Below, piece after piece: positions 3,592-41,851 of a stretch of 64,000 bases of DNA. The DNA lies in assembly GCA_965116885.1 (NCBI GenBank), contig OZ220741.1, forward strand, positions 5,472,001 to 5,536,000. The letters are read 5' to 3'. The first letter of the stretch is position 1. Every line of letters begins with the position of its first letter. The DNA comes from Candidatus Latescibacterota bacterium. GTDB lineage: Bacteria > Latescibacterota > UBA2968. The notes below the pieces were generated by a model. That model worked only from the letters and a program-made list of their open reading frames with translations, did no database searches and was not told the origin of the DNA. Position numbers and translations under genes: made by a program.

Positions 3592-4680
3592 ATGGATAAA
3601 CAGGATCTTGTGCGCGAAGATCAATTTCTGGGTTTTCGAATCTCGAGTCTCACGCGCCGACGCCTGGACAATTTTAAGGCAAATCGACGCGGCTATTACA
3701 GCCTGTGGATATTTCTCGTCCTGTTCGGGTTGAGCTTGCCCGCAGAATTTATCGCCAATGACAAACCCCTTTTGGTTCGACACAAGGGGGCGTTTTATTT
3801 TCCAGTATTAAAAGCCTACCCCGAAACGCTTTTTGGCGGCGACTTTGAAACCGAAGCTGAGTACCGAGATCCATTTGTAACAGAATTAATTGAAAAAGAC
3901 GGATGGATCATCTGGCCTCTGGTGCCATTTCGCTACGATACGATCAACTACGACCTCAAGCATCCAGCCCCTGCACCACCTTCTATACAAAACTATCTGG
4001 GCACCGATGATCAGGCACGCGATGTAACCTCGCGATTGCTCTACGGATTTCGGTTATCGGTCTTATTTGCCCTCGCGCTCACGGTATTCAGTTCCATAGT
4101 AGGCATTGCAGCCGGGGCCGTACAAGGTTATTTGGGGGGGTGGGTCGATCTTATTTTTCAAAGATTTATCGAAATTTGGGGCGGGTTGCCCACCCTGTTT
4201 ATCCTCATTATTATCGCCAGCATTATTGAGCCAACTTTCTGGACGCTCTTGCTGATTATGCTGCTATTCTCCTGGATGCGCCTCGTCGGCGTGGTGCGAG
4301 CCGAGTTCTTGCGGGCGCGCAATTTTGATTTTGTACGCGCCGCACGCGCTCTGGGTGTCAATGACTTGACAATTATGTGGCGGCACGTTTTGCCCAATGC
4401 CATGGTGGCAACCCTGACCTTCTTGCCCTTTGTACTGGTGGGATCTGTCACGGTATTGACCTCGCTGGACTTTCTCGGTTTTGGCCTTCCGCCCCCCTCT
4501 CCCTCGCTGGGAGAATTGCTCAATCAGGGCAAGCGCAATCTGCAGGCTCCCTGGCTGGGTCTATCCGGATTTTTTGTCCTGGCAATTATGTTATCGCTAC
4601 TTGTATTTATCGGCGAGGCCGTGCGCGATGCGTTTGATGTCCGCAAGACCCTGTCGCAAACGGAGGGTAAGAGCGCGTGA
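3592..4680 (+). CDS. yejE: peptide ABC transporter permease
   Basis: FKANRRG, AEFIANDKPL, LGTDDQARDV, VRAEFLRARNFDFVRAARALG. Confidence 0.92.
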   Translation: MDKQDLVREDQFLGFRISSLTRRRLDNFKANRRGYYSLWIFLVLFGLSLPAEFIANDKPLLVRHKGAFYFPVLKAYPETLFGGDFETEAEYRDPFVTELIEKDGWIIWPLVPFRYDTINYDLKHPAPAPPSIQNYLGTDDQARDVTSRLLYGFRLSVLFALALTVFSSIVGIAAGAVQGYLGGWVDLIFQRFIEIWGGLPTLFILIIIASIIEPTFWTLLLIMLLFSWMRLVGVVRAEFLRARNFDFVRAARALGVNDLTIMWRHVLPNAMVATLTFLPFVLVGSVTVLTSLDFLGFGLPPPSPSLGELLNQGKRNLQAPWLGLSGFFVLAIMLSLLVFIGEAVRDAFDVRKTLSQTEGKSA

Positions 4681-6302
4681 GCTTGTTAGACGTTCAAAAT
4701 TTGGGCGTGCATTTTCAACTCGAAGACCAGGTCGTCGAAGCTGTACGCGGCGTATCGTTTCACATTGAAAAAGGTGAAACCGTCGCACTCGTAGGCGAAT
4801 CGGGATCGGGCAAATCCGTCTCGGCACTTTCCGTAATGCAATTGCTGCCCTATCCGCGCGCCTCGCATCCACACGGCAGCGTACAATTTGACGGAGAGGA
4901 AATGCTGGGCGCGTCGCAAGACCGACTGCAACAACTGCGCGGCGACCGCATTGCGATGATTTTTCAGGAGCCGATGACCTCACTGAATCCGCTGCATACA
5001 ATTGAGAAACAGATCGGCGAAACCCTGATGTTGCACCGCAAAATGACGCGAGAGCAAGCGCGTGAACACACGATAGACTTATTGCAAAAAGTACACTTGC
5101 CCGATCCCGAAACGCGCCTCAAATCCTATCCCCACCAGCTATCGGGTGGTCAGCGACAACGCGTAATGATCGCCATGGCCCTGGCCAATGAGCCGGATTT
5201 GCTCATTGCCGATGAGCCTACAACTGCGCTGGATGTGACCATCCAGGCACAAATTTTGAAATTGCTCAAAGACCTGCAAGATGAATTTGGCATGGCAATT
5301 TTGCTCATCACGCACGACCTGACAATCGTGCGGCATGTAGCGGATCGCGTTTATGTAATGACCCAGGGAAAAATTGTAGAAGAAGGAGACACCGCGCGCA
5401 TCTTCGATCAGCCGCAACACATCTATACACAAAAACTTCTAAATGCACAGCCAAAGGGGACGGCATCCGCGCTGAATGGATCGGCACCCATTGTGGTCGA
5501 GGCGGATAATCTGAAAGTGTGGTTCCCCATTCAGCGGGGATTGTTGCGGCGAACCATCGGGCATATAAAAGCCGTAGATGGCATTTCAGTAACCATTCGC
5601 GCCGGACATACCGTCGGCGTTGTCGGCGAATCCGGATCGGGCAAAACAACATTGGGATTGGCCCTGTTGCGATTGCTGAGCAGTCAGGGACCGATTGAGT
5701 TTAATGGACAGGGCATTCAGAACCTGCCGGGCAAAGTACTCCGCCCCTTGAGGCGAGAGATGCAAATTGTTTTTCAAGACCCCTTCGGGTCCTTAAGCCC
5801 CCGCCTATCGGTCTTTCACATTATCGCCGAGGGGTTGCGGGTTCACAACATGGGAGACAGCGATCACAAACGCCGAGACCTCGTAGCAGAAATAATGGAT
5901 GAAGTCGGGCTTGAACCCGAAATGATGGACCGGTTTCCACACGAGTTCTCTGGCGGCCAACGGCAGCGCATTGCCATCGCACGCGCCATGGTATTGCGCC
6001 CCCAATTTGTGGTCCTGGACGAACCCACAAGTGCGCTGGACATGACCGTACAGTCCCAAATCATCGACTTGCTCCGGCGCTTGCAAAAAGACCACGATCT
6101 GGCTTATTTATTCATCAGCCACGACCTGCGGGTCGTGCGCGCACTCGCCAATGAACTCGTCGTAATGAAGGACGGCGTCGTTGTAGAACACGGCGCCACA
6201 GAAACCGTATTTGCAAATCCACAAACAGATTATACGCGGGAATTGATTACAGCGGCATTTGATATTGATGTTGTTGAAAGAGACACAGATGGAGGCGGAT
6301 GA
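4677..6302 (+). CDS. yejF: peptide ABC transporter ATP-binding protein with two ATPase domains
   Basis: Two Walker A motifs ([16 protein letters not shown]), two SGGQRQR signatures and DEPT motifs; operon order yejABEF. Confidence 0.92.
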
Positions 6303-6363
6303 TAGGCTTTAGAAAGGTAATAGCGCAACCATCCCCGTCTCTCAAAAACTATCGAACATCTAT

Positions 6364-8196
6364 TTAGCCGCCAAAATAATCGATAACAATTTCGGCCATC
6401 TTTTTCGAAGCCTCATTGTTCTGAATATCTACGACTGATATAGCGTGTTTTCTTCCAAGAGCATCCACTCTATCCCTATTATTTTCTACAACGAGCAAAA
6501 TCGTAGCAGATTGACCCATTATACGCAGTGCCTCTATCGCATCTTGAATATAGGCATCCGAATCACAGGCATTGACAATTAAGATAGAGGCATCCGGTTT
6601 CAGCCCCATCAAGAGACCAATGGATTGAAAAAGCGAAAGGTGGGGGCTATAAATATCATCAGGAATTATTGTTGATCGGGCCGAAAACAAAACGAGATCA
6701 GGCCGCTTTGTGCGGTATAGTTCGTGTAAATTGTAGCTGAGATATGATGTATAGTGCTGCTCAGACATCTCGAGTTTATCTGCCGAATCAATTGGAAATA
6801 CGAAATCCAAATTGAAGAGGTCTGCATATCTCTCTGTTCCAATCTGACTCACTTTATATCCTATTTGAGTAAGCTCTTTGAACAACTTGATCTGAATGCG
6901 AAATGTATCACAATGTGCCTGTGTGCCAAAAATACCTATGACTGGCACATCCACAGCTTGAAAATAAAAATAGCCGTTGGCAACATCCTCTATGTTCAAT
7001 TGAGGATTGAATATCTTTAACCCCTTTTTATTTGCTATCGCAAAGAGATCGTGATTGTATTTGGGTGGCAAACAACTGAAAATGTTGACATTATTTGCTA
7101 AAGTACGATACATAACTTCAGTCAATACATCTCGCCGGACAACGCGACTCAACGGACTCATATCGCCTATGATGAGCGTGTCGGCATTTTTCAGCACATC
7201 CCGAAGACACGCGCTTAGTTCAGAATCTAAGAGGACCGCTCGACCACTGCCATCATATCTAAACAGTCTCTCTTCCAGTGGATCGACAACACGATGTATA
7301 TCGAACTCGAGTAAATCCTCAAAACGCTCTATATTTTTCAGCTCTTTGTGAATCGCAAACAGGGTTGCTCGCCTAATACAAGGATATTGTTGAATCTCTT
7401 TTCTTTTTTTTTGTGATATTGGTTTTTCAGTAATTGGTAATACGACATCATTTTGAATTGATTCTACAGGTTCCGGAAGGGATTGCAGCGATAGAATTTC
7501 CCTTGTCGCATTTAGAGAGGCGCAAGGGTAAATTTGCCGAATCAAACAGACGATCCCTGCAATACGAGATGCGGCAAAACTCGATCCTGCCGTAATGACT
7601 TTAGACGAATTTTTCCAACACAAAATCTGTTCGCCGCCATGCGCGACACATTCAATGTGATTATTTTTTCGGAAATAATAATCATTGAGCTTTTGCAGCG
7701 GCTTTCCCTGCACGCCAATGACATCTGGGAAAATAGCTGGATAACTTTCGATTCCTCTGTTGTGAGCTGCTGCAACGAGAATGATATCTTCTTGGGCAGC
7801 TTGCCGACACAATTCTTGGATAGGCTCAAAATACTGACGATCCGTTGTGCCCAAACTCAAATTGACAACATCTATCCCGCGATCTATGACCCACTGCAAA
7901 GCTGCTATTAACAATTTGCCATCCGCAACCAAAGATTGTTCGAAAATGCGGATAATATAGATTTCAGCATCAGGCGCGATTTGGCGAATGATTCCCGTGC
8001 AAGCAGTGCCATGGCCTGATCGATCCGCATAATCAGTTCCCCAAATAATCTGTCCATCGGAATCTATTTTGATATCCATACCCTGAGTAATAGATCCGAT
8101 TTCGGGATGTTCATAATCGACCCCACTATCGATGATTGCTATTTTGACGTCCTGCCCCGTCAATCTGCCAAAATCCAGCTTATCCGTGTCCTCCAT
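6364..8196 (-). CDS. S8 (subtilisin-like) serine peptidase fused to a DUF1611/TIGR04066-like peptide-maturation domain
   Basis: Catalytic triad motifs IIDSG, HGTAC and GSSFA; C-half VPVIGIFGT....F..Q..L...L...GYKVSQIGTE; no signal peptide. Confidence 0.8.
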   Translation of the reverse strand: MEDTDKLDFGRLTGQDVKIAIIDSGVDYEHPEIGSITQGMDIKIDSDGQIIWGTDYADRSGHGTACTGIIRQIAPDAEIYIIRIFEQSLVADGKLLIAALQWVIDRGIDVVNLSLGTTDRQYFEPIQELCRQAAQEDIILVAAAHNRGIESYPAIFPDVIGVQGKPLQKLNDYYFRKNNHIECVAHGGEQILCWKNSSKVITAGSSFAASRIAGIVCLIRQIYPCASLNATREILSLQSLPEPVESIQNDVVLPITEKPISQKKRKEIQQYPCIRRATLFAIHKELKNIERFEDLLEFDIHRVVDPLEERLFRYDGSGRAVLLDSELSACLRDVLKNADTLIIGDMSPLSRVVRRDVLTEVMYRTLANNVNIFSCLPPKYNHDLFAIANKKGLKIFNPQLNIEDVANGYFYFQAVDVPVIGIFGTQAHCDTFRIQIKLFKELTQIGYKVSQIGTERYADLFNLDFVFPIDSADKLEMSEQHYTSYLSYNLHELYRTKRPDLVLFSARSTIIPDDIYSPHLSLFQSIGLLMGLKPDASILIVNACDSDAYIQDAIEALRIMGQSATILLVVENNRDRVDALGRKHAISVVDIQNNEASKKMAEIVIDYFGG

Positions 8197-8214
8197 TAAA
8201 ACCTCATCGGTTGA

Positions 8215-9918
8215 TCATCCATAAAGCTGACTATACACTTTACCATGATGTATAAGTTCATCATGAGTGCCTTGTTCCGCCACCCGATGATCTTCAATGA
8301 CCAGGATATGATCCGCATGTCTGATTGTTGAAAGTCTATGAGAAATAATAATCGTTGTTTTCTCTTTCCTGATCTCTTGTAAAGCTTGTAGAATTTTTGT
8401 TTCAGATTCCGTATCCAGGGCTGAAGTCGCTTCATCCAGAATCAGAATGGGTGTATTGCGAAGAATGGCTCTGGCGATCACGATCCTCTGTTTCTGTCCC
8501 TGTGACAACTGCGCGCCTCGTTCTCCCACCTGGGTCTCATACCCTTCTGAAAATTCTTGGATGAAATCATGGGCATGTGCCAACCTTGCTGCCTTCTCTA
8601 CTTGCCACGTTTCCACTCTTTTATTTCCCACGGATATATTTTCAAATACCGAGCCGTAAAACAAAAATGGATCCTGCTGCACAAGCCCAATTTGTCCTCT
8701 CAGAGATGAGAGCCTCATCTGTCTTATATCATATCCATCAATAGTAATAGCACCTGCCTGAGGATCGTAAAATCTCGGGATCAATTGGACGAATGTCGTT
8801 TTGCCATTGCCACTTTTTCCCACAATAGCTGTAGTCTTTCCTCTCTCAATCTCGACAGTGACATCGCTGATAACGGATTGTGATTCTCTATATGAAAAAG
8901 ACACATTGCGAAATTCAATGTGTCCTTCAAGTGGAGGGCCTTCGGGTAATTCTGGAGTCTCTTTTATCTCTGGAACAATGTGGTGAACCTCGAGAAAGCG
9001 ATCAATGTGGACAATAACCGTGCGAAAGTCCATCAGGAGACTCAGCAAACCTTGCATTGGGCCGGAGAGGTAGCCTACATAAGCAGTAAACGCCAAATAG
9101 CTACCCAGACTCATATCACCAGAGAGAATCTGCGTCCAGCCATACCAGCCATACAAAAGCGTCCCACCAGCATGAAGGGCATTAATTAGAAAGCCCGATG
9201 CACCCTGCCAGCAATACATGTTCAGTCGTATCCTTGCTGCTCCTATGGTGGGGTTCTTGATTCGCGAAAACATATAATCTTCGATATTCAAAGCCTGGAT
9301 GGTTCTGATCCCCGAAATAAACTCGATCCTCTTTGCAGAGGCTTCGGCAGTTGTTTCAGCAATTTCTCTGGTTTTTTTAGCCGTATATTTCGACATGAAC
9401 CACGATATCACAGCATCAAATGGCAATACTGCCATACTCAGCAAAGCCAACTTCCAGTTCATGTAGAACAAGATAGGTGGAAACAAGAGCAGCGTCCCCA
9501 CGCTCATAAACGTTGTGCCAATGATACCCATAATTCCAGCTACTGATGATAGGGCATCTCGTGATCTCGATATAATCTCACCGGCTTCTCTCTGATCGAA
9601 AAAACTGAAATTGAGGTATCCGATATGATGATAAAATCCCAGCCCCGTTTTGAGACTTAATCTCATGTTGAGATTATCAGAAAAATATTCATTTAGTGAA
9701 GATATCAGATTGGAAAAAATAGAAATAAAGGCTGTGGAGACGAGAACGACATAAAGTAAGTTTGCGTCTTTGGTGTGATAGACATTATCGATGAGAACTT
9801 TTGTAAAGTAGGGTGGGAGAAGAGAGAAGAAAATCAGAAAGGCACTGACAAACAATGTCTGTATGATCATCTTTCGATGTCCACGCAGCAATAATAAGAT
9901 ATGGGCAAGCTTCTGCAA
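8215..9918 (-). CDS. ABC exporter (TMD+NBD), bacteriocin/T1SS type, without an N-terminal C39 domain
   Basis: Multi-TM N-half, Walker A GKSGNGKT, LSQGQKQR signature, ILDEATSALD. Confidence 0.9.
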   Translation of the reverse strand: MQKLAHILLLLRGHRKMIIQTLFVSAFLIFFSLLPPYFTKVLIDNVYHTKDANLLYVVLVSTAFISIFSNLISSLNEYFSDNLNMRLSLKTGLGFYHHIGYLNFSFFDQREAGEIISRSRDALSSVAGIMGIIGTTFMSVGTLLLFPPILFYMNWKLALLSMAVLPFDAVISWFMSKYTAKKTREIAETTAEASAKRIEFISGIRTIQALNIEDYMFSRIKNPTIGAARIRLNMYCWQGASGFLINALHAGGTLLYGWYGWTQILSGDMSLGSYLAFTAYVGYLSGPMQGLLSLLMDFRTVIVHIDRFLEVHHIVPEIKETPELPEGPPLEGHIEFRNVSFSYRESQSVISDVTVEIERGKTTAIVGKSGNGKTTFVQLIPRFYDPQAGAITIDGYDIRQMRLSSLRGQIGLVQQDPFLFYGSVFENISVGNKRVETWQVEKAARLAHAHDFIQEFSEGYETQVGERGAQLSQGQKQRIVIARAILRNTPILILDEATSALDTESETKILQALQEIRKEKTTIIISHRLSTIRHADHILVIEDHRVAEQGTHDELIHHGKVYSQLYG

Positions 9919-9965
9919 GAAAACCTCCTAACACTGCCAAAAATCCCATCCTAACCTGAAAAAGG

Positions 9966-10322
9966 TCATTTGATTTTTTCATCCTTCGTATCAGTTTCAG
10001 TCTTAGTCTCAAGGGTATCCATGTATCTATGAGCCATATCCCATACCAGGTATGTCAGCATCTCTTCCCAAATTTCACCCACTTCCTCCTTCTGGATTTC
10101 ACTCTGAATTTCACTCTGGGTAATAACCAAATTGTGAACAAGCGTGGTATCTGTATAGGTTGTATCTCGACCATCGTTTGTAATTTTACCCCGCATTACA
10201 GTACCACTGACTCTGACAGAATCTACATGATGTGCTATAGTCATATTCTCAAGCCTTACCACTATGATACCCGATGAATCATGATCATCGCAACTACCAA
10301 GCAGAACTAAACCAGCGATCAT
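9966..10322 (-). CDS. small putative lipoprotein, paralogue of the 107-aa leader-bearing protein; ancestral start probably the AGG at 10349
   Basis: Lipobox LGSC; DSVRVSGTVMRG..DTTY aligns with DTIKVTGTVKQG..DTTW of 12587-12910; GAGGAG lies 7 nt upstream of the in-frame AGG. Confidence 0.65.
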   Translation of the reverse strand: MIAGLVLLGSCDDHDSSGIIVVRLENMTIAHHVDSVRVSGTVMRGKITNDGRDTTYTDTTLVHNLVITQSEIQSEIQKEEVGEIWEEMLTYLVWDMAHRYMDTLETKTETDTKDEKIK

Positions 10323-10362
10323 ATATAGAATAGATATTCGTTTCCGCCTGCTTAATCTCCTC

Positions 10363-12426
10363 TCAATTCGCGTGGGTAATAGAGTCTGTAACCGTATTGG
10401 ATTTTATGATTAGAAAGCTAAAGTTAGCTTCTCCACGCTCCAAATTCTTCACCAACTCTACATCGACAGCAGTTCCCGGTTTATCCATAGCCTGAAGCAA
10501 GTCATTACTCGCCTGTTGTCTTGGATCATCTTGGGGCAAGAGAGCCAAAATTTGATGCAGAGATTCTTTTGTTACTTCAGGCTGTTTATACAAGATGCCT
10601 AAACCTGTGTGTTTTTTAAGGGCTTGAAATTTTTCCTCTAATGTGGATGATAGTTCTATAAGCTCTTGATTTGCTTCAATGGCTTTTCCATAGTTTTCTA
10701 AAAAAATATAGCTCACCAAGAGCCCGGTATTGATTTGCTTTTGATCGCGACAGTAAGTTGTTCGGTTACAGTGTTCTTTTTGCTTTTCCAACTCAATCAT
10801 TGCATTGGCATAATCTCGAAGTTTAAGATAGTGCGAGGCCAATTCTTTACGCAGTGCATGAGCATTTGGATAAAGTTCCAATCCCTTTTTGAATATAGAA
10901 GCTGCTTTTGCGTTTTCATTGCGGATGCGATAAAATATCCCTGCTTGTAACAAGGTGGCACCATTTGTGGGGCCCATTGCGAGGGCTGTTGAAAGATATT
11001 GATCTGCTTGTGCATTTTTTACCGGATCATTTTCATTTGCATAAAGTTTGGCGAGCAAGGCATAAGTGCCTGGCAAGGGCGGCTGATTCGATACTGCTGC
11101 CTCAAGTTCCCTGAAAGCATCTTCTTTATTTCCCTCGTCGTATAGAAATCCACCTCTGTCAGTTTGTAGACAATTTTGTGCATAAATATTTGTTTCGAAG
11201 TTATGAGGCAAATCAACACCTATAGGAAAGATGAATAGCGAAGATTGGTCATAAAAATTCCAGGCATGTTGAAAATCGACAGTGGGAATTTCTCGGTTAT
11301 AAATCCAGTGAAGTACATCATAAGAAATGATAATGTCTTTAATTTCGTCATACCCCACAACCAATGTGAAATGCCCATAACCGTATTCGGGTTCAAGAAT
11401 GAGTACAAGAACTGGGTAGCCTCGATTGACCCAATATTTAATTTTAGGAAGGTCTGCTACGCCCAAATAGGCTTGAAATCCTCTTTCAACAGCAAAATTC
11501 CACAGGGCATAAGGAGTAGTGCCAGCATCATCTCCTATTTTCTTTGCGATCGATTTCTGGGAGACCGAATCGTTGAGAAAATTTAATACCATTTTGAGGG
11601 TTGCAGAACCGCACGCACCCAGTGTCTGCACGATGTAGCCCCGAGGGGGAAAGGGAACACCATCGATGATTTTTCTTTTTGCATCATCAGGCACATTATT
11701 TAGCGATTTTATGTAGTGTTGCGCTTGTTGATAAGTGGCTTGATTATGTTCCAACTCAATCATAGAATAATTCTCAATGGCTTTGCCATGTTTTCCCATT
11801 GCATAATACACATCACCGATCTTGAGCCTTGCTTTAGCCAACAGTTCAGGCGTTTTTTCCGTTTTGATAATCCGATTAAACGCATCTATCGCCTGCTCAT
11901 ATCGCTGCAATCTCATAAGACATATCGCAAGTACCCGTAGAATGAAGGTATCTTCTCCTTTCAGACGCAGTGTTTCTTTTAAATATTGAATTGCCTTCTC
12001 ATATCGGCCTTGTCCTGCCAAAAGTAAGCCAAGATGTCCATTTACTTCCACATCCTCCGGTGAGAGCGCGAGCAGACTTTCGTAACAGCTAATCGCATCT
12101 TCATATCGCTCCAATCTTTTATACGCATAGATCAGTTGATGGTATGTAGTCTGATTATTAGGATTAGTTCTTAATATAGCCTTTCCATATGCAACGGACT
12201 GATCATAGTCTTCCATCCCAATAAAGGCGGCTTGCAGAAGCCCCAATACATCAATATCTTCTGGATTATTTTTTAAAACTTCTTGGAATAATTCAATAGC
12301 CTGTGGATAATTTTCTTGCTCATATAATTCGAAGCCTCTTTCTATTTTGCTATCCAGCTTATTTGAACAAGCAGAAAGCAGAATCAAACCTGCGATAATG
12401 CATAGAATAGATACTCGTTTCCACAT
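10363..12426 (-). CDS. lipoprotein with N- and C-terminal TPR arrays flanking a C39-like cysteine peptidase domain
   Basis: MWKRVSILCIIAGLILLSAC lipoprotein signal (start 12426 or 12438, not 12504); TPR repeats; QTLGACGSATLKMVL (Cys), GHFTLVVGYD (His), SYD (Asp). Confidence 0.8.
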   Translation of the reverse strand: MWKRVSILCIIAGLILLSACSNKLDSKIERGFELYEQENYPQAIELFQEVLKNNPEDIDVLGLLQAAFIGMEDYDQSVAYGKAILRTNPNNQTTYHQLIYAYKRLERYEDAISCYESLLALSPEDVEVNGHLGLLLAGQGRYEKAIQYLKETLRLKGEDTFILRVLAICLMRLQRYEQAIDAFNRIIKTEKTPELLAKARLKIGDVYYAMGKHGKAIENYSMIELEHNQATYQQAQHYIKSLNNVPDDAKRKIIDGVPFPPRGYIVQTLGACGSATLKMVLNFLNDSVSQKSIAKKIGDDAGTTPYALWNFAVERGFQAYLGVADLPKIKYWVNRGYPVLVLILEPEYGYGHFTLVVGYDEIKDIIISYDVLHWIYNREIPTVDFQHAWNFYDQSSLFIFPIGVDLPHNFETNIYAQNCLQTDRGGFLYDEGNKEDAFRELEAAVSNQPPLPGTYALLAKLYANENDPVKNAQADQYLSTALAMGPTNGATLLQAGIFYRIRNENAKAASIFKKGLELYPNAHALRKELASHYLKLRDYANAMIELEKQKEHCNRTTYCRDQKQINTGLLVSYIFLENYGKAIEANQELIELSSTLEEKFQALKKHTGLGILYKQPEVTKESLHQILALLPQDDPRQQASNDLLQAMDKPGTAVDVELVKNLERGEANFSFLIIKSNTVTDSITHAN

Positions 12427-12586
12427 GCGTAAAACCATCACTTGTAACTCCAAATGTATATCTGAAAAATCGGGGCCTATATTTGAGGTAGGGTAGGTAA
12501 TCAAATTAATATAGACCCCGATAATGAATTTTAAGCCACAAGAAAAAGCGAAAAGACAGCATTAATGGAATGAGGTCAAGGCCGAT

Positions 12587-12910
12587 TTAAGTGTCATCAA
12601 TCTGATCCATTACCCAATCCCAGATTCGACCAACTATACCTTTTGTACCGAATGGTGCTTCTTTCTTCACATCCTCCTTGGTCGCGGTAATTTCAATCTT
12701 TTTTGGCTCTGACCAAGTTGTATCTCCCGGTGCCTCAACTCTACCTTGCTTGACCGTTCCCGTAACCTTAATGGTATCACCAGGAGTTTTAACGAAGGTA
12801 GTAGGCTCAGTCGTCTGATAAACTATGGTTTTTTCATCATCCCCATAAGCTTCAACACATCCCAATTCCAGATGATAAGATCTCTGCACGCGTTTCACAA
12901 GCGTTTTCAT
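12587..12910 (-). CDS. putative exported precursor with a CLI_3235-like leader (MKTLVKR...VEAY)
   Basis: Strong RBS AAGGAGG; basic N-terminus ending in VEAY; Thr-rich core; lies between hlyD and the peptidase/exporter genes. Confidence 0.65.
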   Translation of the reverse strand: MKTLVKRVQRSYHLELGCVEAYGDDEKTIVYQTTEPTTFVKTPGDTIKVTGTVKQGRVEAPGDTTWSEPKKIEITATKEDVKKEAPFGTKGIVGRIWDWVMDQIDDT

Positions 12911-13078
12911 ACATCCCTCCTTGAAAGAGTGAAAACACGCTCTTTCCGTTTACATCGGTTTAGAAAGAGAGTATTCAAAAATTGACGGTCTTTCCTCTTC
13001 TCCTTGTGGTTATTTCAATTCCCAAAGGCGATGCGGAAGGCAACAGAAAAGTACTCCCAGAATTTCCTCCTTTCTTTT

Positions 13079-14287
13079 TTAATTCGCCTTTTTGGGATCG
13101 AAAATATAGAAATCATGTTCGGGAATTTTTCCCGCTGTGCGAAGAAACCTGTTCCATATCAGATCGAGAATTCTTCCCTTTTCCACGGCTATCTTCGCTT
13201 CAACGCTCATGCCGTAAGCAAGTGAATAGGTATTGCTATTTACAGAAATTTCGGGGTTCTGAATCGTTATTTTTATAGGATAAACTTTTGTCTCTTGATA
13301 GGGATTATCCGATACAGACTGTGCAGCAATTTCTGCGACTGTACCCTCAAAAATTTTGTATTCCATGTGAGGAAAGGCATTCACGAAAAGATTCACGGGT
13401 TGTCCGACTTGCACTTTGTGAATCTCTGTTTCTTTGATCATCACTTTTGCCTGCCAATCACCCAGGCGTGCAAGTTCCATTACAGCCTCTCCCATCTGGA
13501 GGTGGTCGCCAACGCGTCGTTCTAAATCGCCAGTTAAAACCGTGCCAGATACAGGCGCATAAACCACGGTGTTTTCTATTCGACGCAGCAAGACACGTTG
13601 GTCTTCTCTCAGTTTTTGGTTCATTTTTTTTAGCGTCTCAATTTCTCGGTGCCTGCGGTCAACCGTTTTCAATCTTTCCTGGTCTGTTTGTAATTTGACC
13701 TGCGCCTGTTTTAAAATGGATCTTTTTAGTCTTATGGGTAGCAACTGATCAATTCCTGATTTACTATTCACGAGATTGTATTTTTCAACGAGTTGATACT
13801 CCCGTTCTACTTGATCCAGTTGCAAACGCAAGGTCTCTATCTCGGACTGTGTTTGACGAATCTCACTTTGTAGAATTTTTTTTTCTGATCTCATCTGTTC
13901 TTCTATCTCTGCCATCCTGCTTCTGTTAATTTCTTGCTCTTTGCCGACTTTCTCCAATTCGGCTTCCCACTCCCTGCTTTCCAACTTAAAAAGAAGGCCT
14001 CCTTTTGCCACCTTGTCCCATCTATCGACATAGACTTCATGTATTATTCCCGAAAGCTTTGTCTTCACTTCAAAGCGACCTGAAGGTTCAACAACACCTG
14101 TCCCTTCCACATTTACATTCATTCCAATATTCCACACCAAAAAGAGGATACCTGCAATCAAAGTGATAACGGATAGCAAGATGAACAGGAGAAATCGTTT
14201 GACAAATCCAAAGCCTATTCCCTTAAAATCGTCTATAATGTCTATTGGGACTTTTGTCTGGTCGTTTTGAATAGCGGGGGACTTCAT
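13079..14287 (-). CDS. HlyD-family secretion adaptor (membrane fusion protein)
   Basis: Single N-terminal TM, lipoyl-like halves (SGIIHEVYV, YAPVSGTV), long coiled coil, GMSVEAKI. Confidence 0.9.
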   Translation of the reverse strand: MKSPAIQNDQTKVPIDIIDDFKGIGFGFVKRFLLFILLSVITLIAGILFLVWNIGMNVNVEGTGVVEPSGRFEVKTKLSGIIHEVYVDRWDKVAKGGLLFKLESREWEAELEKVGKEQEINRSRMAEIEEQMRSEKKILQSEIRQTQSEIETLRLQLDQVEREYQLVEKYNLVNSKSGIDQLLPIRLKRSILKQAQVKLQTDQERLKTVDRRHREIETLKKMNQKLREDQRVLLRRIENTVVYAPVSGTVLTGDLERRVGDHLQMGEAVMELARLGDWQAKVMIKETEIHKVQVGQPVNLFVNAFPHMEYKIFEGTVAEIAAQSVSDNPYQETKVYPIKITIQNPEISVNSNTYSLAYGMSVEAKIAVEKGRILDLIWNRFLRTAGKIPEHDFYIFDPKKAN

Positions 14288-14330
14288 TCTCTTGTCAGTG
14301 GCAAATTTTACACCGCTCCAAACGTTGCCT

Positions 14331-15608
14331 CTATAGGCTCGACAACAATTGCTCTGTACGCTCGGCTCCGTTTAGCAAAATGTTGTGTTTCATCCGGGGG
14401 CTTTCCAAACGCTCTAAAATTGCGTTTGCCATTCGCTCTAATGTCAGTTCTTCAGAGCGTATCATATCCGCTATACCTAATTCGGAAAGTTTCTCTGCTC
14501 GAGGTGCTTGATCAAGGTCTGTCTTTGCTGGAATCGGTACCAAAATAGCTTTTACACCTGTCTCAAGGACATTCATACACGTATTATAGCCCGCCTGACT
14601 GATAGACAATTCTGCGCCCTGCATCCACTGAAGAAAGTCGTTCGTGAACTTCGACAGATAGAAGAAATCTTCTGTACACATTTCTTCTATCGCATCATAC
14701 TCAGCGTCCTTCATAAAAACCCCAGCAAAGATCACCATCTTCATGTTTTGAACATAACCATTCTCGCAAAGTATCTTCCAGGCAGTTACCGCTGTTGTAA
14801 TCATGTCCCAACCGAGGATACCGCCACCAACACTGACCAAAACATAAGGTCCCTGTTTCTCTATCGTTTTTTGGGTATCGGAATCAAGGCTTTTCAATTT
14901 TTCAGAAACATATCCTGTATATTCAATTGGAATCTCGATATTCTCTATCCAGGGAAAAAATGATTCCAATTGAAAAAGTCTCGGATCACCGTGAATGAGG
15001 ACGTAATCAAAATATCGATTCAACACAGGAACAACGCGTTCGTAATACAATCGTGACAACCTTTTGTTTTTTTGGTCCTTACGCAAAAAAGAAACTGCAT
15101 ACCAAATCATCCTGGGTATGAAAAACAAAGTTTCCGGATGTGGCGGTTTCTTTGTAGAAAGCTCTTTTTCAGGAGTCTTTCTTATTATTTCACGTACGGA
15201 ACAGATCACCTTCACTTTTGGATTTACACTCTTTGCCTTTTGAATCGCAGGGATCAACTCTTTGTACAGTATAGATCTGGCAAATGGAAAAAGTTCAATC
15301 ACGAAAATATCTGGCTGTATCTGTGCAATTTTTTCGAGCAAAATTTGCCTGCGCTTCTCCTGAGCCTTCCGCAGACTGAATTTTGGGTCTTCACACACTA
15401 TGCGCTGAGACTCTAAATCCTTAAAGAGAGCTGGCAAACGAATGGTCGTAACTGACGGTATATCAATACGATGAATTTCGCGTCCCCCATCTACAAAATA
15501 GACTTTATAGCTTTTTGCCAATGCGCGAACGATCTGAAAATTTCTAAAATGATGACCAACACCTAACAAGTGTTGACTGAAGAAAACAATGCGTTTTTTG
15601 GATAACAT
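14331..15608 (-). CDS. glycosyltransferase, GT-B fold (COG4671 / GT28 C-terminal-like)
   Basis: QHLLGVGH, IELFPF, VSVGGG, SQAGYNT and DQ..RA motifs. Confidence 0.85.
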   Translation of the reverse strand: MLSKKRIVFFSQHLLGVGHHFRNFQIVRALAKSYKVYFVDGGREIHRIDIPSVTTIRLPALFKDLESQRIVCEDPKFSLRKAQEKRRQILLEKIAQIQPDIFVIELFPFARSILYKELIPAIQKAKSVNPKVKVICSVREIIRKTPEKELSTKKPPHPETLFFIPRMIWYAVSFLRKDQKNKRLSRLYYERVVPVLNRYFDYVLIHGDPRLFQLESFFPWIENIEIPIEYTGYVSEKLKSLDSDTQKTIEKQGPYVLVSVGGGILGWDMITTAVTAWKILCENGYVQNMKMVIFAGVFMKDAEYDAIEEMCTEDFFYLSKFTNDFLQWMQGAELSISQAGYNTCMNVLETGVKAILVPIPAKTDLDQAPRAEKLSELGIADMIRSEELTLERMANAILERLESPRMKHNILLNGAERTEQLLSSL

Positions 15609-15641
15609 TTATCAGAATCCTCTGAGACCCATGATTTTGAT

Positions 15642-16085
15642 CTAAGAGCCACGTTCAGCCTCTAAATCTACACGGGATGAATTTTTTTGAATAAGGCTTT
15701 CGCATCTCACTTTTGCGCGGTAAGCAGTAAGAGACATGTCATTTACCTTCATAAACACCTCACAAAAATACTTTGAGGAATGAAATCCACACATGCCTGC
15801 AACCTCATAGGTCAACAGGGATTGTTCGCTTATTAAGTGCTTTGCATGGGCAATTCTGATCTCTCTCAATTTTTCTCGGAAAGGCTTGCCAACATGCTTT
15901 TTGAACAAGGCACTCAGATGCGTTCTGGAAAGTTTGAAATGATCTACGAGATCACTAAATTTGAGGTCCGGGTTGCTGTAATGCGCCTCCAAAAAGGCTT
16001 CAAACGCAATTTTCCAACTCGAATCTGATGGGATATAGGTTTTGACCTTCGCCAAAAACTTGCTCCTTTCAACTACACTATTCAA
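15642..16085 (-). CDS. AraC-family regulator, HTH domain only
   Basis: HLSALFKKHVG...RIAHAK.L....EVAGMCGF.SSKYFCEVF double HTH; no sensor domain. Confidence 0.8.
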   Translation of the reverse strand: MNSVVERSKFLAKVKTYIPSDSSWKIAFEAFLEAHYSNPDLKFSDLVDHFKLSRTHLSALFKKHVGKPFREKLREIRIAHAKHLISEQSLLTYEVAGMCGFHSSKYFCEVFMKVNDMSLTAYRAKVRCESLIQKNSSRVDLEAERGS

Positions 16086-16114
16086 ATAGATTTTTCACTG
16101 TTTAAACAGATATG

Positions 16115-16131
16115 TGCAATATGTGTGCCAA
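16115..16131 (-). promoter_or_regulatory. sigma54 (-24/-12) promoter of the island operon
   Basis: Minus strand TTGGCACACATATTGCA = TGGCAC-N5-TTGCA, about 30 nt upstream of the first island gene. Confidence 0.75.
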
Positions 16132-16228
16132 TATGAACTTCTCAAGTAATAATGCTCATAAAGTATTGTTTTTATTTCGTATAAAAATTATTACCGAGCA
16201 AAAGACAGGTAGAATACCGAATTAAAAG

Positions 16229-16277
16229 GTGAAAACATCGTTCACTTTTCTCTTTTCGAGTGAACATTATGTACACT
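16229..16277. promoter_or_regulatory. two dyad sites, candidate upstream activator sequences
   Basis: GTGAAAACATCGTTCAC and AGTGAACATTATGTACACT, 100-145 bp upstream of the sigma54 promoter. Confidence 0.45.
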
Positions 16278-16321
16278 TTAATTCGCGTTGACAATCGCGT
16301 TCCGGATTGTTATTTTTTACA

Positions 16322-16397
16322 TCCTTCTCAAGTTCTCAGCTTGAGATATTTACCTGCCGCTGACAGTTGACTTGCCCGGTCTTGTCGGCGGCTTTTT
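16322..16397 (+). ncRNA. candidate ~75-nt sRNA or terminated leader
   Basis: TTGACA(16288)-N17-TATTTT promoter; hairpin TCTCAAG/CTTGAGA; GC stem GCCGCTGACA/TGTCGGCGGC followed by TTTTT. Confidence 0.4.
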
Positions 16398-16531
16398 CAT
16401 ACAACAATAATGATAATACCAACCTTTCAGTCGCTGCAACAAAAAAAGATTCCACTTATGTCTTATCTGACCTCTTTATGTCTTATTTTTGGTATTTTTT
16501 TTCGAAATGTTGTTTTTTTTATTATTCCTGA

Positions 16532-17515
16532 ATGGAAGGCCAAATGAATCAACTCGTTAATCAAAACGGTCAAATTATTCCACTCTCTTCACTAACAGAA
16601 TGGAAAGAAAAGCGCGCGAAAATACTCGAATCAGCGCAGGAAATCATGGGTCCTTTACCGGGAGGTGAAAAGCGATGCTCAATCGCCGTAAATCTGGTAG
16701 AAGAAGTAGATTGCGGGACGTATATCAGGCGGATGATCACCTACGCCGCAGAACCCGGCGACCGCGCACAGGCGTATTTGCTAATCCCAAAACAGGCGTT
16801 GGATGGTCATGAATGTCCAGTCGTCTTATGTCCACACCCAACGCATGCGACATTGGGATACAAAACCGTCGTGGGACTGGGCGACCGCCCCAATCGGGCT
16901 TATGCCAGCGAATTGGCCGAACGCGGCTTTGTCACCATCGCACCGTCCTATCCCATGCTCGCGGAATATTGGCCCGATGTATTCGGTCTGGGCTATGAAA
17001 GTGGAACTATGAAGGCGATATGGGACAATATCCGAGCCATCGATCTTCTGGAAACACTGCCGTATGTAAAGCGGGGACCTGTCGGGACAATCGGGCACTC
17101 TCTGGGCGGGCACAACTCGGTCTATACCGCTGTTTTTGAACCGCGCATCGGCGTTGTGGTATCGAGTTGCGGGTTAGACTCCTACATAGACTACAAAGAC
17201 GGTAATCTCGCTGGATGGACGCAGGATCGGTACATGCCCAAATTGAAAAATTACGTCCATCGCCTGTGGGATATCCCCTTTGATTTTCACGACTTAATCG
17301 CGGCTCTGGCACCCCGGCCCTGTTTTATTGCCGCGCCTCTGCGCGACAGCAATTTCAAATGGCAAAGTGTAGATGCCGTTGTCAACGCAGCCGCTCGCGT
17401 GTACGCCCTTTACGATGCAACAGAAAATCTAATCGTCGAACACCCCGATTGCGAACACGATTTTCCCAACGCCATGCGCGAACAGGCGTATCAATTATTC
17501 GAAAAACACCTTTGA
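16532..17515 (+). CDS. alpha/beta hydrolase (dienelactone hydrolase / acetylxylan esterase-like); start may be 16544
   Basis: GHSLGG nucleophile elbow, LIAALAPRP, C-terminal HDF. Confidence 0.85.
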   Translation: MEGQMNQLVNQNGQIIPLSSLTEWKEKRAKILESAQEIMGPLPGGEKRCSIAVNLVEEVDCGTYIRRMITYAAEPGDRAQAYLLIPKQALDGHECPVVLCPHPTHATLGYKTVVGLGDRPNRAYASELAERGFVTIAPSYPMLAEYWPDVFGLGYESGTMKAIWDNIRAIDLLETLPYVKRGPVGTIGHSLGGHNSVYTAVFEPRIGVVVSSCGLDSYIDYKDGNLAGWTQDRYMPKLKNYVHRLWDIPFDFHDLIAALAPRPCFIAAPLRDSNFKWQSVDAVVNAAARVYALYDATENLIVEHPDCEHDFPNAMREQAYQLFEKHL

Positions 17516-29263: not shown

Positions 29264-29542
29264 AATGCAAAAACTGGGTATCAAGCGTCCCTGATTACCG
29301 TCCGTATATGGATTATAGTCCATATACGGATGTTTATATATAACTATTTATTAATCAATAACATAAGAGCCAGTCTGAATTTTTTTGAACCATATACGGT
29401 TCAAAGGACATAAAATTCGGGCTGGTTTTTTTGTTGGCATATAAATTTTATCTCAAATAAAAATAATATCTTATGAGTATTTATTTGGATTCTGTTCACG
29501 TTGGCACGCTTTTTGCATTATATCCAAACATTTAATGCCATA
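29262..29542 (+). repeat. ~280-bp near-identical direct repeat (copy 1) of 40146-40427: activator 3' end, UAS dyads and sigma54 promoter
   Basis: Read by eye, the two stretches differ at only a few positions. Confidence 0.93.
29501..29517 (+). promoter_or_regulatory. sigma54 promoter (copy 1)
   Basis: TTGGCACGCTTTTTGCA; CCRTATAYGG dyads at 29301, 29319 and 29385. Confidence 0.85.
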
Positions 29543-29972
29543 CATACGTGAGGTGGCGGACAGTGCTGAAGATGAGATTTATGCCTACGGCGGCCTGGGC
29601 ACCACCAGTGAGCAGGACATCCAGGACTTTTCAATGAAAATCAGAGGCTCGACGGGAACCCTGAAAATTTGCGTACGTGACCACGAATGCGAAGATGGCG
29701 ATAGGATCAGGGTTGAGGTCAATGGCAGGAGCATATTTTCCGGAGAAATTGACAACGACTGGGACTGCTACACGCTGGATGTGTGGTCAGGAGAGAGCTA
29801 TGCAGTGGAATTGACAGCCCTCAACGGCACGGGATACAAGGGAGACTGTAGCTACCGAGACGAAAACACGGGTGAGATCCGCGTTACTGGGGAGAACACA
29901 GAGACGCAGGTATGGCGTCATCGTGGAGGAGCCGGATCGAAAGCGCGGATCATCGTGGAAACAGCGAGGTGA
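29535..29972 (+). pseudogene. 5'-deleted copy of the GIWSDG-repeat protein (C-terminal domain only)
   Basis: Nearly identical to the last ~130 aa of 40669-41805; lacks signal peptide, repeats and RBS. Confidence 0.7.
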
Positions 29973-30014: not shown

Positions 30015-30830
30015 ATGTATCGTCACTGTATTTGTGCAGGTGTATTAATTCTTCTGAGCCTTCCCCTATGGTCACAACAGAACACCGGGGATAGTGTGCC
30101 TTCACCTGGGGAGACATTTCAAGACTGTGCTGAATGTCCAAAGATGGTTGTTGTGCCATCGGGAAGGTTCACGATGGGGTCACCCAAGCGTGAGGGGGGT
30201 GATGATGATGAAAAACCGATGCGCAGGGTGCGTATAGATTACCGGTTTGCGGTGGGTGTATATGAGGTGACCTTTGACGAATGGTATGCCTGTGCGGATG
30301 CAGGAGGTTGTGGAAGCTATGTGCCGGATGATGAGGGCTGGGGCCGCGGGAATCGTCCGGTGGTGAATGTGAGTTGGAAAGATGCCCAGTCTTATTTGCG
30401 TTGGCTGTCTGCCCGGACGGGTAAAACGTATCGTTTATTGAGTGAAGCGGAATGGGAGTATGTGGCACGCGCAGGCACAGAGACAGCGTATAGCTGGGGT
30501 GACAGCGTAGGTGTCAACCGCGCCAATTGCGATGGTTGCGGCAGTCAGTGGGATGATAAGATGACAGCACCAGTGGGATCTTTCGCGGCCAATGCTTGGG
30601 GCGTGTACGATATGCACGGGAATGTAGGGGAATGGGGGCAGGATCATTGGAATGAGAATTACAGGGGCGCACCTTTAGACGGTTCTGCGAGGGAGCCTGA
30701 GGATACCCTTTATCGCGTATTACGTGGTGGTTCGTGGCTCGACAGACCGGGGGACTTGCGTTCGGCGAATCGCGACAAGGGCTTCATCCGGTCCTCCCGC
30801 CGCGGTTTTCGAGTTGCCCGGTCTTTTTAA
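30015..30830 (+). CDS. secreted FGE-sulfatase (SUMF1/CLec-fold) domain protein 1
   Basis: Signal peptide; FQDC.ECPKMV, YEVTF, RLLSEAEWEY, DMHGNV.EW, RGGSW, GFRVAR. Confidence 0.9.
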   Translation: MYRHCICAGVLILLSLPLWSQQNTGDSVPSPGETFQDCAECPKMVVVPSGRFTMGSPKREGGDDDEKPMRRVRIDYRFAVGVYEVTFDEWYACADAGGCGSYVPDDEGWGRGNRPVVNVSWKDAQSYLRWLSARTGKTYRLLSEAEWEYVARAGTETAYSWGDSVGVNRANCDGCGSQWDDKMTAPVGSFAANAWGVYDMHGNVGEWGQDHWNENYRGAPLDGSAREPEDTLYRVLRGGSWLDRPGDLRSANRDKGFIRSSRRGFRVARSF

Positions 30831-30873
30831 CTCGTGATTCTTTACAGAAACATCAACGAAAGGAAGGTGCGTC

Positions 30874-40184: not shown

Positions 40185-40288
40185 TCCGTATATGGATTAT
40201 AGTCCATATATGGATGTTTATATATAACTATTTATTAATCAATAACATAAGAGCCAGTCTGAATTTTTTTGAACCATATACGGTTCAA
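40185..40288. promoter_or_regulatory. three CCRTATAYGG dyads, candidate binding sites for the adjacent activator
   Basis: TCCGTATATGGA (40185), TCCATATATGGA (40203), TTGAACCATATACGGTTCAA (40269), 100-200 bp upstream of the -24 box. Confidence 0.65.
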
Positions 40289-40385
40289 AGGACATAAAAT
40301 TCGGGCTGGTTTTTTTTGTTGGTATAGAAATTTTATCTCAAATAAAAATAACATCTTATGAGTATTTATTTGGATTCCATTCACG

Positions 40386-40402
40386 TTGGCACGCTTTTTG
40401 CA
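40386..40402 (+). promoter_or_regulatory. sigma54 promoter (copy 2)
   Basis: TTGGCACGCTTTTTGCA matches the consensus. Confidence 0.88.
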
Positions 40403-41805: not shown

Positions 41806-41851
41806 GATCATCCAAATGTTGTTCAAAAATATTAATGAAAGGATACACAAG

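Follow-up and report, generated by a model that had tools for sequence, protein, structure and literature searches.

An AT-rich island of eight genes around a small leader-bearing protein

In a 64,000-nucleotide stretch of the genome of a Candidatus Latescibacterota bacterium (contig OZ220741.1, positions 5,472,001 to 5,536,000; hereafter the window), we analyzed a block of eight genes that encodes a 107-aa small protein beside a protease fusion, an ABC exporter, a periplasmic adaptor, a glycosyltransferase, two lipoproteins and a regulator. This island is best explained as a self-contained system that would make, trim and export one small protein, whose primary product we call the precursor. 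An original prediction had described eight co-oriented genes in an AT-richer block, which agreed with both the open reading frame (ORF) list and the GC profile of the window: all eight ORFs lie on the minus strand at the positions it gave, and the GC content is 0.376-0.454 within the island vs 0.50-0.54 in its flanks. Families were assigned to six of the eight proteins with Pfam and NCBIfam, and Rfam gave nothing at gathering scores across 5800-17000. The features are listed below in window coordinates.

4677-6302, flanking gene for an oligopeptide-type ABC ATPase
6275-16542, AT-rich inserted island, 10,268 bp, between the ABC ATPase and alpha/beta-hydrolase genes
6364-8196, minus strand, gene for a 610-aa fusion of an S8 protease and a TIGR04066/DUF1611-like half
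6364-7296, minus strand, degenerate TIGR04066/DUF1611-like domain of the fusion, with GTQAHCDTFR at 6898-6927
7477-8196, minus strand, S8 (QhpE-like) domain, N-terminal 240 residues of the fusion
8215-9918, minus strand, ABC exporter, 567 aa, transmembrane domain and ATPase (PF00664, PF00005)
9966-10322, minus strand, small lipoprotein ORF, 118 aa, no Pfam or NCBIfam family
10363-12426 (ORF 10363-12504), minus strand, lipoprotein built as TPR, C39-like cysteine peptidase, TPR; signal MWKRVSILCIIAGLILLSAC
12587-12910, minus strand, precursor, 107 aa, AAGGAGG ribosome-binding site
12842-12910, minus strand, leader of the precursor, residues 1-22/23, MKTLVKRVQRSYHLELGCVEAY(G)
13079-14287, minus strand, HlyD-type membrane-fusion (periplasmic adaptor) protein, 402 aa (PF16576, PF13437)
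14331-15608, minus strand, cytoplasmic glycosyltransferase, 425 aa (PF04101, GT28_C, 52.6 bits)
15642-16085, minus strand, AraC-type regulator consisting of the helix-turn-helix (HTH) part only, 147 aa, TTG start (PF12833, HTH_18/HTH_AraC, 60 bits)
16086-16265, minus strand, promoter module of about 180 nt, 80% identical to the region upstream of the regulator in a paralogous cluster, L006
16115-16130, minus strand, sigma-54 -24/-12 element TGGCACACATATTGCA, perfect consensus, 30 nt upstream of the regulator ORF
16229-16266, minus strand, inverted repeat GTTCACT / AGTGAAC with a further TTCAC, read from the sequence
16532-17515, flanking gene for an alpha/beta-hydrolase

The island is an insertion at a hypervariable site

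The ABC ATPase and hydrolase genes are direct neighbors in the sister genomes G047 and G033, where the site is empty, and one marine-metagenome contig links window position 6274 to 16543, omitting 10,268 bases. Since the sister genomes and this contig join the flanks directly, the 10,268-bp block is an insertion with an empty-site form. In G046, G041 and G049 (loci L096, L098 and L099, respectively), another island occupies the same chromosomal site. It encodes a GT1-GT28 fusion, a further GT1 enzyme, an HlyD protein, two CPBP proteins and a UDP-GlcNAc 2-epimerase, together with a precursor with a long leader ending in double glycine (GG) and a cNMP-C39-ABC exporter of about 1,020 aa. The island further encodes a receiver-AraC regulator; in G041 and G049 its HTH part shares 77-84% identity with that of the window, and in G046 it was not seen within the stretch examined. 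An IS3-type transposase pair lies inside the G046 island (L096:9947-11136). From these comparisons the locus is a hypervariable chromosomal site, at which predicted alternative exported-peptide cassettes replace one another.

Among the other genomes of the genus, 3 of 20 carry the window-type island when it is traced via its precursor; none of 32 in the rest of the order does. The expected co-occurrence of the genes elsewhere was borne out, as G035 carries the full eight-gene set, G048 has the same gene order minus the 118-aa gene, at a different chromosomal site, and three island members were seen in G036 (a low-scoring fusion, with the gene order kept). G035 (L012:14213-15307) and contigs of two sponge runs contain an extra GT1 glycosyltransferase gene of about 1.2 kb in the interval between the fusion and the flank, which is missing from the corresponding window interval 6275-6363. 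The sequencing runs that contain the window stretch (at least 0.9 of sampled words) mostly carry sponge-metagenome labels from several studies, and the association with sponges is that given by these labels.

Relative to G035, the ratio of nonsynonymous to synonymous substitution rates (dN/dS) was 0.07-0.58 across all eight island genes. Divergence was uneven along the island. Within window 11000-13000, which takes in the precursor and the half of the TPR-C39 gene next to it, DNA identity to G035 reached 95-98%, compared with 82-91% over the remainder. The precursor had a dS of 0.03 and the TPR-C39 gene one of 0.11, vs 0.41-0.46 for the glycosyltransferase, HlyD, ABC and fusion genes. This contrast in identity and dS with the remaining island suggests that the precursor/TPR-C39 segment was recently exchanged between lineages.

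The protease fusion belongs to a cassette common in Latescibacterota

The best NCBIfam match of the S8 domain was the QhpE model (NF049966, 137.4 bits, below the cut-off of 165; PF00082, 79 bits). QhpE is a cytoplasmic subtilisin-like protease that cuts a 28-residue leader from QhpC ahead of its ABC export to the periplasm, without Sec (PMC7876137). The catalytic triad of the domain (D23, H62, S206) was invariant in 6 of 6 aligned fusions, and the three S8 motifs were found in 21 of 21 fusions of the comparison set defined below. The fusion carries no signal peptide, and its S8 protease is predicted to be cytoplasmic. In PDB sequence searches, the island proteins matched nothing beyond subtilisins and generic TPR proteins, apart from a weak match to MurG.

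The island had originally been likened to CLI_3235-type peptide-maturation clusters, described as combining a TIGR04066 maturation protein, an S8 peptidase, an ABC exporter and the radical SAM maturase CcpM. This content matches the make-up of the SacP23 cluster (PMC10731318), and NCBIfam does name TIGR04068 'CcpM'. The C-terminal half of the fusion is indeed homologous to TIGR04066 (60.2 bits, E 1.7e-16, residues 327-504, model positions 56-232 of 361). The score stays below the cut-off of 200, however, and PF07755 gave no match in the window copy, although the paralogues do match. The absence of a radical SAM gene was also correctly noted: there is none among the eight proteins, and the genome gave only five matches to TIGR04068, all of them weak (163 bits at best, cut-off 500) and outside the window, the nearest being at genome positions 0.08, 0.26 and 1.93 Mb. 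TIGR04069, related to acyl-carrier proteins (ACPs), had 0 matches in the genome.

Three further protease-TIGR04066 fusions are encoded in the genome, at 1.77 Mb (L006), 1.84 Mb (L005) and 1.94 Mb (L007), each with an adjacent ACP-like gene, a nearby ABC exporter and a receiver-AraC regulator. Genes that vary among these loci encode HlyD, TPR, GT28-type glycosyltransferase, BtrH_N-like, thioredoxin-like, MauE-like, sulfotransferase and GNAT proteins. The candidate precursors of the three loci are the following.

L005:3272-3526, Gly-rich, 2 Cys
L006:6063-6446, 127 aa, Cys-free
L007:12024-12239 and 16585-16785, two Cys-rich peptides

Where the candidate precursors contain Cys, the locus has thioredoxin-like and MauE/DoxX-like genes as well, which is reminiscent of methylamine dehydrogenase maturation. 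The window island is the most diverged of the four fusion clusters of the genome.

For a survey beyond this genome, fusions were scanned with one genome per species, covering the best 80 of 585 relatives among 599 candidate stretches. Most full-length fusions were located on Latescibacterota contigs, with others on KSB1, Gemmatimonadota and Rosettibacter contigs, and matches from Actinomycetota and Chloroflexota cover the S8 part alone. A TIGR04066-like match occurred in 80 of 153 Latescibacterota genomes (completeness at least 80%, E up to 1e-10), in ORFs mostly of 620-700 aa, and the curated TIGR04066 cut-off was reached in none of the 153. The view of the island as an undescribed branch standing alone must therefore be given up. 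Radical SAM/SPASM maturases adjoin the fusion in Rosettibacter (L048) and KSB1 (L028), and one lies 6.6 kb off in the Latescibacterota locus L025.

We then compared 21 loci, comprising the window, its three paralogues, G035, G048 and 15 scan loci with full-length fusions; loci that are short or hold a partial fusion (L018, L021, L026, L027, L031, L033, L035) and all S8-only loci were excluded. An ABC exporter was present in 17 of the 21 loci, HlyD in 11 and a GT28-type glycosyltransferase in 4. In 19 loci the fusion has an ACP-like gene, matching generic ACP models, no more than 239 nt away, and the same 19 carry a P-loop-like GT..QGKF(T/S) motif, with its glycine-lysine (GK) pair, in the C-terminal domain; G048 is among those that keep both. 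Motif and ACP are absent together only in the window and G035, so that the two features are co-present or co-absent in 21 of 21 loci. As the window and G035 are close relatives, the joint loss represents one evolutionary event rather than two. In these two fusions, GTQAHCDTFR (window) and STQAHCDTFR (G035) occupy the place of GTSSQQGKFT in the relatives, and only 61 nt, with no ACP gene, separate the stop codon of the window fusion from the convergent flanking gene.

The TIGR04066 score of the window fusion is the lowest in the genus. No part of the island is less conserved than the degenerate domain of this fusion (82% DNA identity to G035), and the fusion is the fastest-diverging gene, with 77% amino acid identity vs 86-96% in the other island genes. 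Given the score far below the cut-off, the lost GK motif and the absent ACP gene, the TIGR04066/DUF1611-like half looks vestigial rather than like a working maturase. Nevertheless, its dN/dS against G035 of 0.33 (0.24 for the S8 domain) indicates that the domain is not free of constraint.

The precursor has a conserved leader and a variable Cys-free core

The start of the small protein and its 85-aa core without Cys were confirmed as originally quoted. The core behind Y22 has a mass of 9.4 kDa and a pI of 4.7, is hydrophilic and contains 16 Thr/Ser and 0 Cys; the sole Cys of the precursor is C18, within the leader. No Pfam or NCBIfam family matched the precursor. The proposed kinship of the leader with CLI_3235 precursors (TIGR04065, cut-off 26 bits) failed, as the precursor gave no match at E up to 10, the genome gave none anywhere at E up to 1, and the model matched none of the leader-bearing small ORFs beside fusions.

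Precursor relatives formed 4 clusters among 5.8 billion proteins, and a profile search of 1.84 billion representatives yielded 10 matches. A repetitive 2,162-aa protein, P0007, was judged spurious as a relative. P0012 is a read-through from the end of an HlyD gene, which places the precursor-HlyD neighborhood on another contig too. By these searches the predicted family is tiny, with about 9 cluster representatives. In its alignment, 13 of 17 invariant columns fall within residues 1-22, and the G048 homologue shares little with the window protein past the leader (76% identity over 25 aa). On this alignment, the leader MKxLVKR...EAY is conserved and the Cys-free core is variable, with an invariant GDT and recurring DTT motifs.

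Because C18 is replaced by W in G035/G036 and by H in distant members, it appears dispensable. The sequence 'LELGC' around it was rejected as a lipobox-like lipidation site, there being no hydrophobic segment and W or H in relatives, and a double-glycine leader was likewise rejected, with no GG, GA or GS site in the leader. An acidic D(D/E)T or LDT tail ends most family members (P0002, P0005, P0006, P0008, P0009, window, G035, G048); we know of no sorting or secretion signal that resembles it. The AlphaFold2 model showed strands over residues 28-77 followed by two helices, at a pLDDT of 53.8, a confidence too low for searching by fold. Two ESM Atlas look-ups gave no usable match, and a complex prediction of the fusion with precursor residues 1-40 scored 0.22 (mark 0.32).

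Small ORFs with MKxLxK...(A/G)Y leaders occur in 7 scanned fusion loci (L006, L007, L018, L019, L029, L032, L036); those in L018, L019, L029, L032 and L036 were further matches to a leader profile made of the precursor family sequences plus three paralogous precursors. The matches are weak in L029 (E 3.4), L032 (E 1.1) and L036 (E 0.015, on a Gemmatimonadota contig), and the cores of the ORFs are Cys-rich, Gly-rich or Cys-free.

Exporter, adaptor and glycosyltransferase

The ABC exporter begins with its transmembrane domain and has no C39 or C39-like N-terminal domain. Its scores against curated models are close to one another: 399 bits for HlyB (TIGR01846, cut-off 725), 399 for MsbA-related proteins, 356 for glucan exporters and 349 for HepA. 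The HlyD protein reached 100 bits with TIGR01843 (cut-off 209) and also matched DevB. Relative to G035, dN/dS is 0.07 for the ABC gene and 0.15 for the HlyD gene. No TolC-like gene lies in the island; 7 TolC-like ORFs are located elsewhere in the genome.

The C-terminal part of the glycosyltransferase is matched by GT28 and MurG/MGT models, with partial matches to TIGR01133 and TIGR01426. The enzyme is kept in all three sequenced island versions under strong purifying selection (dN/dS 0.14) and has a 43%-identical paralogue in the fusion cluster L005. These properties, together with the Thr/Ser-rich core and its GDT and DTT motifs, would suit a radical-SAM-less branch of the CLI_3235/TIGR04066 RiPP systems (peptides made by the ribosome and then modified), whose product is leader-cleaved and glycosylated by the island enzyme before type I export. 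The alternative island, with three glycosyltransferase domains and a UDP-GlcNAc 2-epimerase beside its GG-leader precursor, points the same way. We consider this possible but unlikely. The island does not qualify as a CLI_3235 member, as it has neither the matching precursor nor the radical SAM enzyme nor the ACP, and its TIGR04066 score is under the cut-off. Such a glycosyltransferase accompanies only 4 of the 21 fusions, and it accompanies very different precursors, so that it may serve another acceptor. Moreover, the usual acceptors of GT28/MurG-like enzymes are lipids or small molecules, and we know of no peptide-glycosylating member.

The same enzyme could instead act with the ABC and HlyD proteins to make and export a glycolipid or polysaccharide, leaving the small protein and the peptidases as accessories or passengers. 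The equal HlyB and MsbA-related scores, the HepA, glucan exporter and DevB matches, and the glycosyltransferase genes and sugar epimerase that accumulate at the locus in sister species are compatible with such a role. However, across the fusion loci it is the ABC exporter, rather than the glycosyltransferase, that accompanies the fusion and leader-bearing ORFs (17 vs 4 of 21). The alternative-island exporter has a C39 peptidase domain, a domain type that cuts peptide leaders in exporters, and Pfam and NCBIfam revealed no flippase, polymerase or lipid-carrier genes in the island. A glycolipid or polysaccharide product is hence quite improbable.

Two lipoproteins, one of them a paralogue of the core

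The TPR-C39 protein matched Peptidase_C39_2 (39 bits) and the PA2778-type C39 model (59 bits) and carries the C39 motifs QTLGACGSATL and GHFTLVVGYD. The window, G035 and G048 proteins all retain the Cys motif, and the His and Asp columns do not vary in any of 4 aligned sequences; dN/dS against G035 is 0.32.

The 118-aa protein aligned with the precursor core (BLASTP E 4e-06, 29% over 59 aa) and by this match is a paralogue of it. Its G035 and G046 homologues have MRKRLS(I/L)LC..(F/L)ASC signal peptides. The ORF exists in the window as predicted, but its native ATG is changed to AGG (10347-10349), which makes its expression doubtful. G046 encodes an intact small lipoprotein (L096:1621-2073) with a full signal peptide, 83% identical and directly beside the flank, and the precursor was not found in the G046 genome; this orphan looks like an immunity-type gene.

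A lipoprotein related to the core, a QhpE-like protease, a TPR scaffold protein and a regulator at the head of the cluster would also fit a small protein that serves as a periplasmic or surface subunit pairing with the lipoprotein paralogue, in the manner of exported QhpC, or as a signal, and not as a weapon. This is very unlikely in our judgment, since the island lacks genes for a partner enzyme and has a patchy, strain-specific distribution within a hypervariable locus, G048 has the precursor without the lipoprotein paralogue, and the window lipoprotein gene is start-less.

A sigma-54 promoter module precedes a truncated regulator

Perfect matches to the sigma-54 consensus numbered 3 in the window vs 0.06 expected, and TTGGCAYN5TTGCA sites numbered 22 genome-wide vs 0 for a reversed control pattern. 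The element upstream of the regulator is kept in the paralogous cluster L006 as TGGCATACATGTTGCA, with one mismatch, and the genome contains one rpoN gene. A sigma-54 promoter in front of the first island gene is thus supported by sequence, as originally predicted, through the perfect element, its conservation in the paralogue and rpoN. One gene for an enhancer-binding protein lies in the window.

36999-40178, sigma-54 activator gene with a Reg_prop/Y_Y_Y sensor part, 21 kb from the island promoter, with no link to that promoter seen

GTTCAC/GTGAAC repeats are also kept in the L006 promoter region, and the inverted repeat at 16229-16266 is a candidate activator-binding site. The promoter module is common to four sites, and the regions upstream of two FGE-sulfatase-like gene arrays carry the same module as the island. 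A repeat of about 245 bp with the sigma-54 element TGGCACGCTTTTTGCA occurs in nearly identical copies at window 29300-29545 and 40190-40435; both copies lie upstream of these arrays (30015-31713 and 41762-42670), with the activator gene between them. A further sigma-54-type site (G000:C1:260448-260464) lies about 450 nt upstream of the TIGR04068-like radical SAM/SPASM gene 258802-259992. Sigma-70-like sites were at chance level (27 vs 25 expected).

The predicted AraC-HTH gene does encode the HTH, yet it is an HTH-only remnant: the protein is 86% identical to the C-terminal part of a 267-aa receiver-AraC protein of G035 (dN/dS 0.27), and in the alignment with G035 the promoter module sits where G035 has the part coding for the receiver domain.

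Upstream of the precursor gene, 170 nt are conserved out to G048. A 536-nt contig of a relative from a sponge RNA library spans 12519-13052, that is, the precursor gene and its untranslated flanks alone. This contig is a weak hint from which no transcript end can be read and for which DNA carry-over is possible, and island parts uncovered in that run were not counted as silent. No stable hairpin was found after the precursor gene (z 0.39).

The regulator without its receiver domain and the lost lipoprotein start codon, together with the lost GK motif and ACP, the lowest TIGR04066 score in the genus and the fast-diverging fusion, would be in line with decay of a G048-type cluster, which had its whole receiver-AraC regulator, DUF1611 motif and ACP intact, into a largely non-functional remnant. 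Such decay is poorly compatible with eight open frames at dN/dS below 1, with 0.07-0.15 for the ABC, glycosyltransferase and HlyD genes and 0.33 even in the degenerate domain. Furthermore, the ACP-less form persists in G035 at a dS of about 0.4, a complete sigma-54 promoter module replaced the lost regulator part, and the RNA-library contig covers the precursor. A non-functional remnant is highly improbable on this evidence.

Proposed mode of action of the island

Based on these features, we propose that the S8 domain removes the leader and that the ABC/HlyD pair exports an 85-aa acidic protein, probably a competition factor; we assign this a probability of about 0.5. The S8 cleavage and ABC export are modeled on QhpE/QhpF, the closest mechanistic precedent. 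Transcription would start from the sigma-54 promoter ahead of the receiver-less AraC-type regulator, and the precursor gene probably has an additional promoter of its own. The 22-23-residue leader MKxLVKR..LELG.VEAY(G) would mark substrates of the Latescibacterota-wide cassette and would be cut near the AY-G junction by the cytoplasmic QhpE-like S8 domain. The C39-less ABC exporter and HlyD would then move the 85-aa core from the cytoplasm, and a TolC-like protein encoded elsewhere may take it across the outer membrane. In relatives, the TIGR04066/DUF1611-like half would work with the ACP; as the GK motif and the ACP partner are lost here, the island product is probably not modified by it. The glycosyltransferase may conceivably glycosylate the Thr-rich core. 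After export, the TPR-C39 lipoprotein and the lipoprotein paralogue might make a second cut, hold the product or confer immunity; the paralogue may shield the producing cell or tether the product.

The insertion, the patchy distribution, dN/dS below 1, the invariant S8 triad and the conserved leader all support leader removal and export by the island. Its product is most likely a strain-specific competition or interaction factor, a bacteriocin-like protein, in view of the hypervariable site, the alternative bacteriocin-type island, the orphan G046 lipoprotein and the mosaic identity pattern against G035. Several points weigh against the proposal. Processing, export and activity are all deduced from sequence, and the cleavage site is a guess from the alignment, as the leader matches no profile, TIGR04065 included. 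Two peptidases, the cytoplasmic S8 and the periplasmic C39, are present, and either could remove the leader. The island shows the signs of decay given above (truncated regulator, lost lipoprotein start, lost GK motif and ACP, fast-diverging fusion). The ABC and HlyD proteins fall below every curated cut-off, with lipid or polysaccharide exporters (MsbA, HepA, DevB) scoring equally. Finally, the structure model of the precursor is of low confidence, and the RNA support is the single contig of a relative.

A more speculative extension, which we regard as rather improbable, is that the cassette cuts and then caps its substrates: the S8 domain would expose the N-terminus and the DUF1611-like domain would acylate it from the carrier. 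The island would then be a loss-of-capping derivative with Sec-independent export of an unmodified or glycosylated 9-kDa toxin, for which the anchored paralogue would provide immunity and the C39-TPR protein activation. This is hinted at by the strict co-occurrence of GK motif and ACP, by a weak match of the DgcN N-acetyltransferase model to a paralogous fusion (E 5.7e-05), by the orphan G046 lipoprotein and by the reported blocked N-terminus of the SacP23 product (PMC10731318).

The TIGR04066/TIGR04069 module has had no assigned chemistry since its definition, and here roughly half of the Latescibacterota genomes searched encode it as part of a protease fusion. The island amounts to a natural experiment, in which the nucleotide-binding motif disappeared along with the carrier protein and the protease, exporter and precursor are still under selection; the joint loss implies that the two halves of this uncharacterized, widespread maturation enzyme are separable. 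Precursor, fusion and exporter form a small testable system from which the leader rule and the site of cleavage could be worked out for a whole precursor class, and the variable site bears on competition among sponge-associated uncultivated bacteria inside their host. Should the product be an ordinary strain-specific bacteriocin-like protein, the finding would be a useful annotation and little more.

Comparison with known systems

No paper on peptide maturation by a DUF1611-type enzyme turned up in our literature searches (a DgcN/DUF1611 search gave unrelated papers only), nor any on bacteriocin clusters of sponge Latescibacterota, and TIGR04066 and TIGR04069 were found only as annotations. 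With the CLI_3235/SacP23 systems of Firmicutes, the island shares a TIGR04066-homologous domain, an S8 protease, an ABC exporter and a small leader-bearing precursor in one place. Unlike CLI_3235, its protease and TIGR04066-like part are fused (60 bits vs the cut-off of 200), it has neither radical SAM enzyme nor ACP, its precursor does not match TIGR04065, and its core is 85 aa and Cys-free, compared with about 40 aa and Cys-rich. It also adds an HlyD adaptor, a glycosyltransferase and two lipoprotein genes, in a diderm host. Of five features that define CLI_3235 clusters, only the S8 protease with ABC exporter was found, and not the precursor, a TIGR04066 score at cut-off, CcpM or the ACP.

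Double-glycine bacteriocin export resembles the island in its leader-bearing small protein, ABC exporter, HlyD-type adaptor and C39-family peptidase with catalytic Cys and His. However, the island C39 domain is on a periplasmic TPR lipoprotein and not on the exporter, the leader has no GG or GA, and there is an extra cytoplasmic S8 protease; a true double-glycine system lies at the same chromosomal site in sister species. Compared with type I secretion (HlyB/HlyD/TolC), the island ABC protein reaches 399 of 725 bits and the adaptor 100 of 209, the TolC-like ORFs (7) lie elsewhere, and many members of the cargo family end in DDT/EDT.

With the QhpE/QhpF route, the island shares the QhpE model as the best match of its S8 domain and the combination of a small leader-bearing protein with an ABC exporter. 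It differs in the S8 score (137 bits, below 165), in the absence of QhpC, QhpD, QhpG and the dehydrogenase subunits, in the added HlyD and in an unrelated cargo. Compared with the fusion cassette of its own phylum, it has the same architecture, an intact S8 triad, the C39-less ABC exporter, HlyD, an AraC regulator of the receiver-AraC type and the MKxLxK...(A/G)Y leader. It departs from the cassette in two of five features, the ACP gene and the GT..QGKF motif, both missing here, and its precursor family and TPR-C39 lipoprotein are specific to the window island type. By descent, sequence comparison clearly points to a derived member of this common Latescibacterota fusion cassette, and in its working the closest likeness would be to a QhpE/QhpF-type route coupled with a bacteriocin-style exporter.

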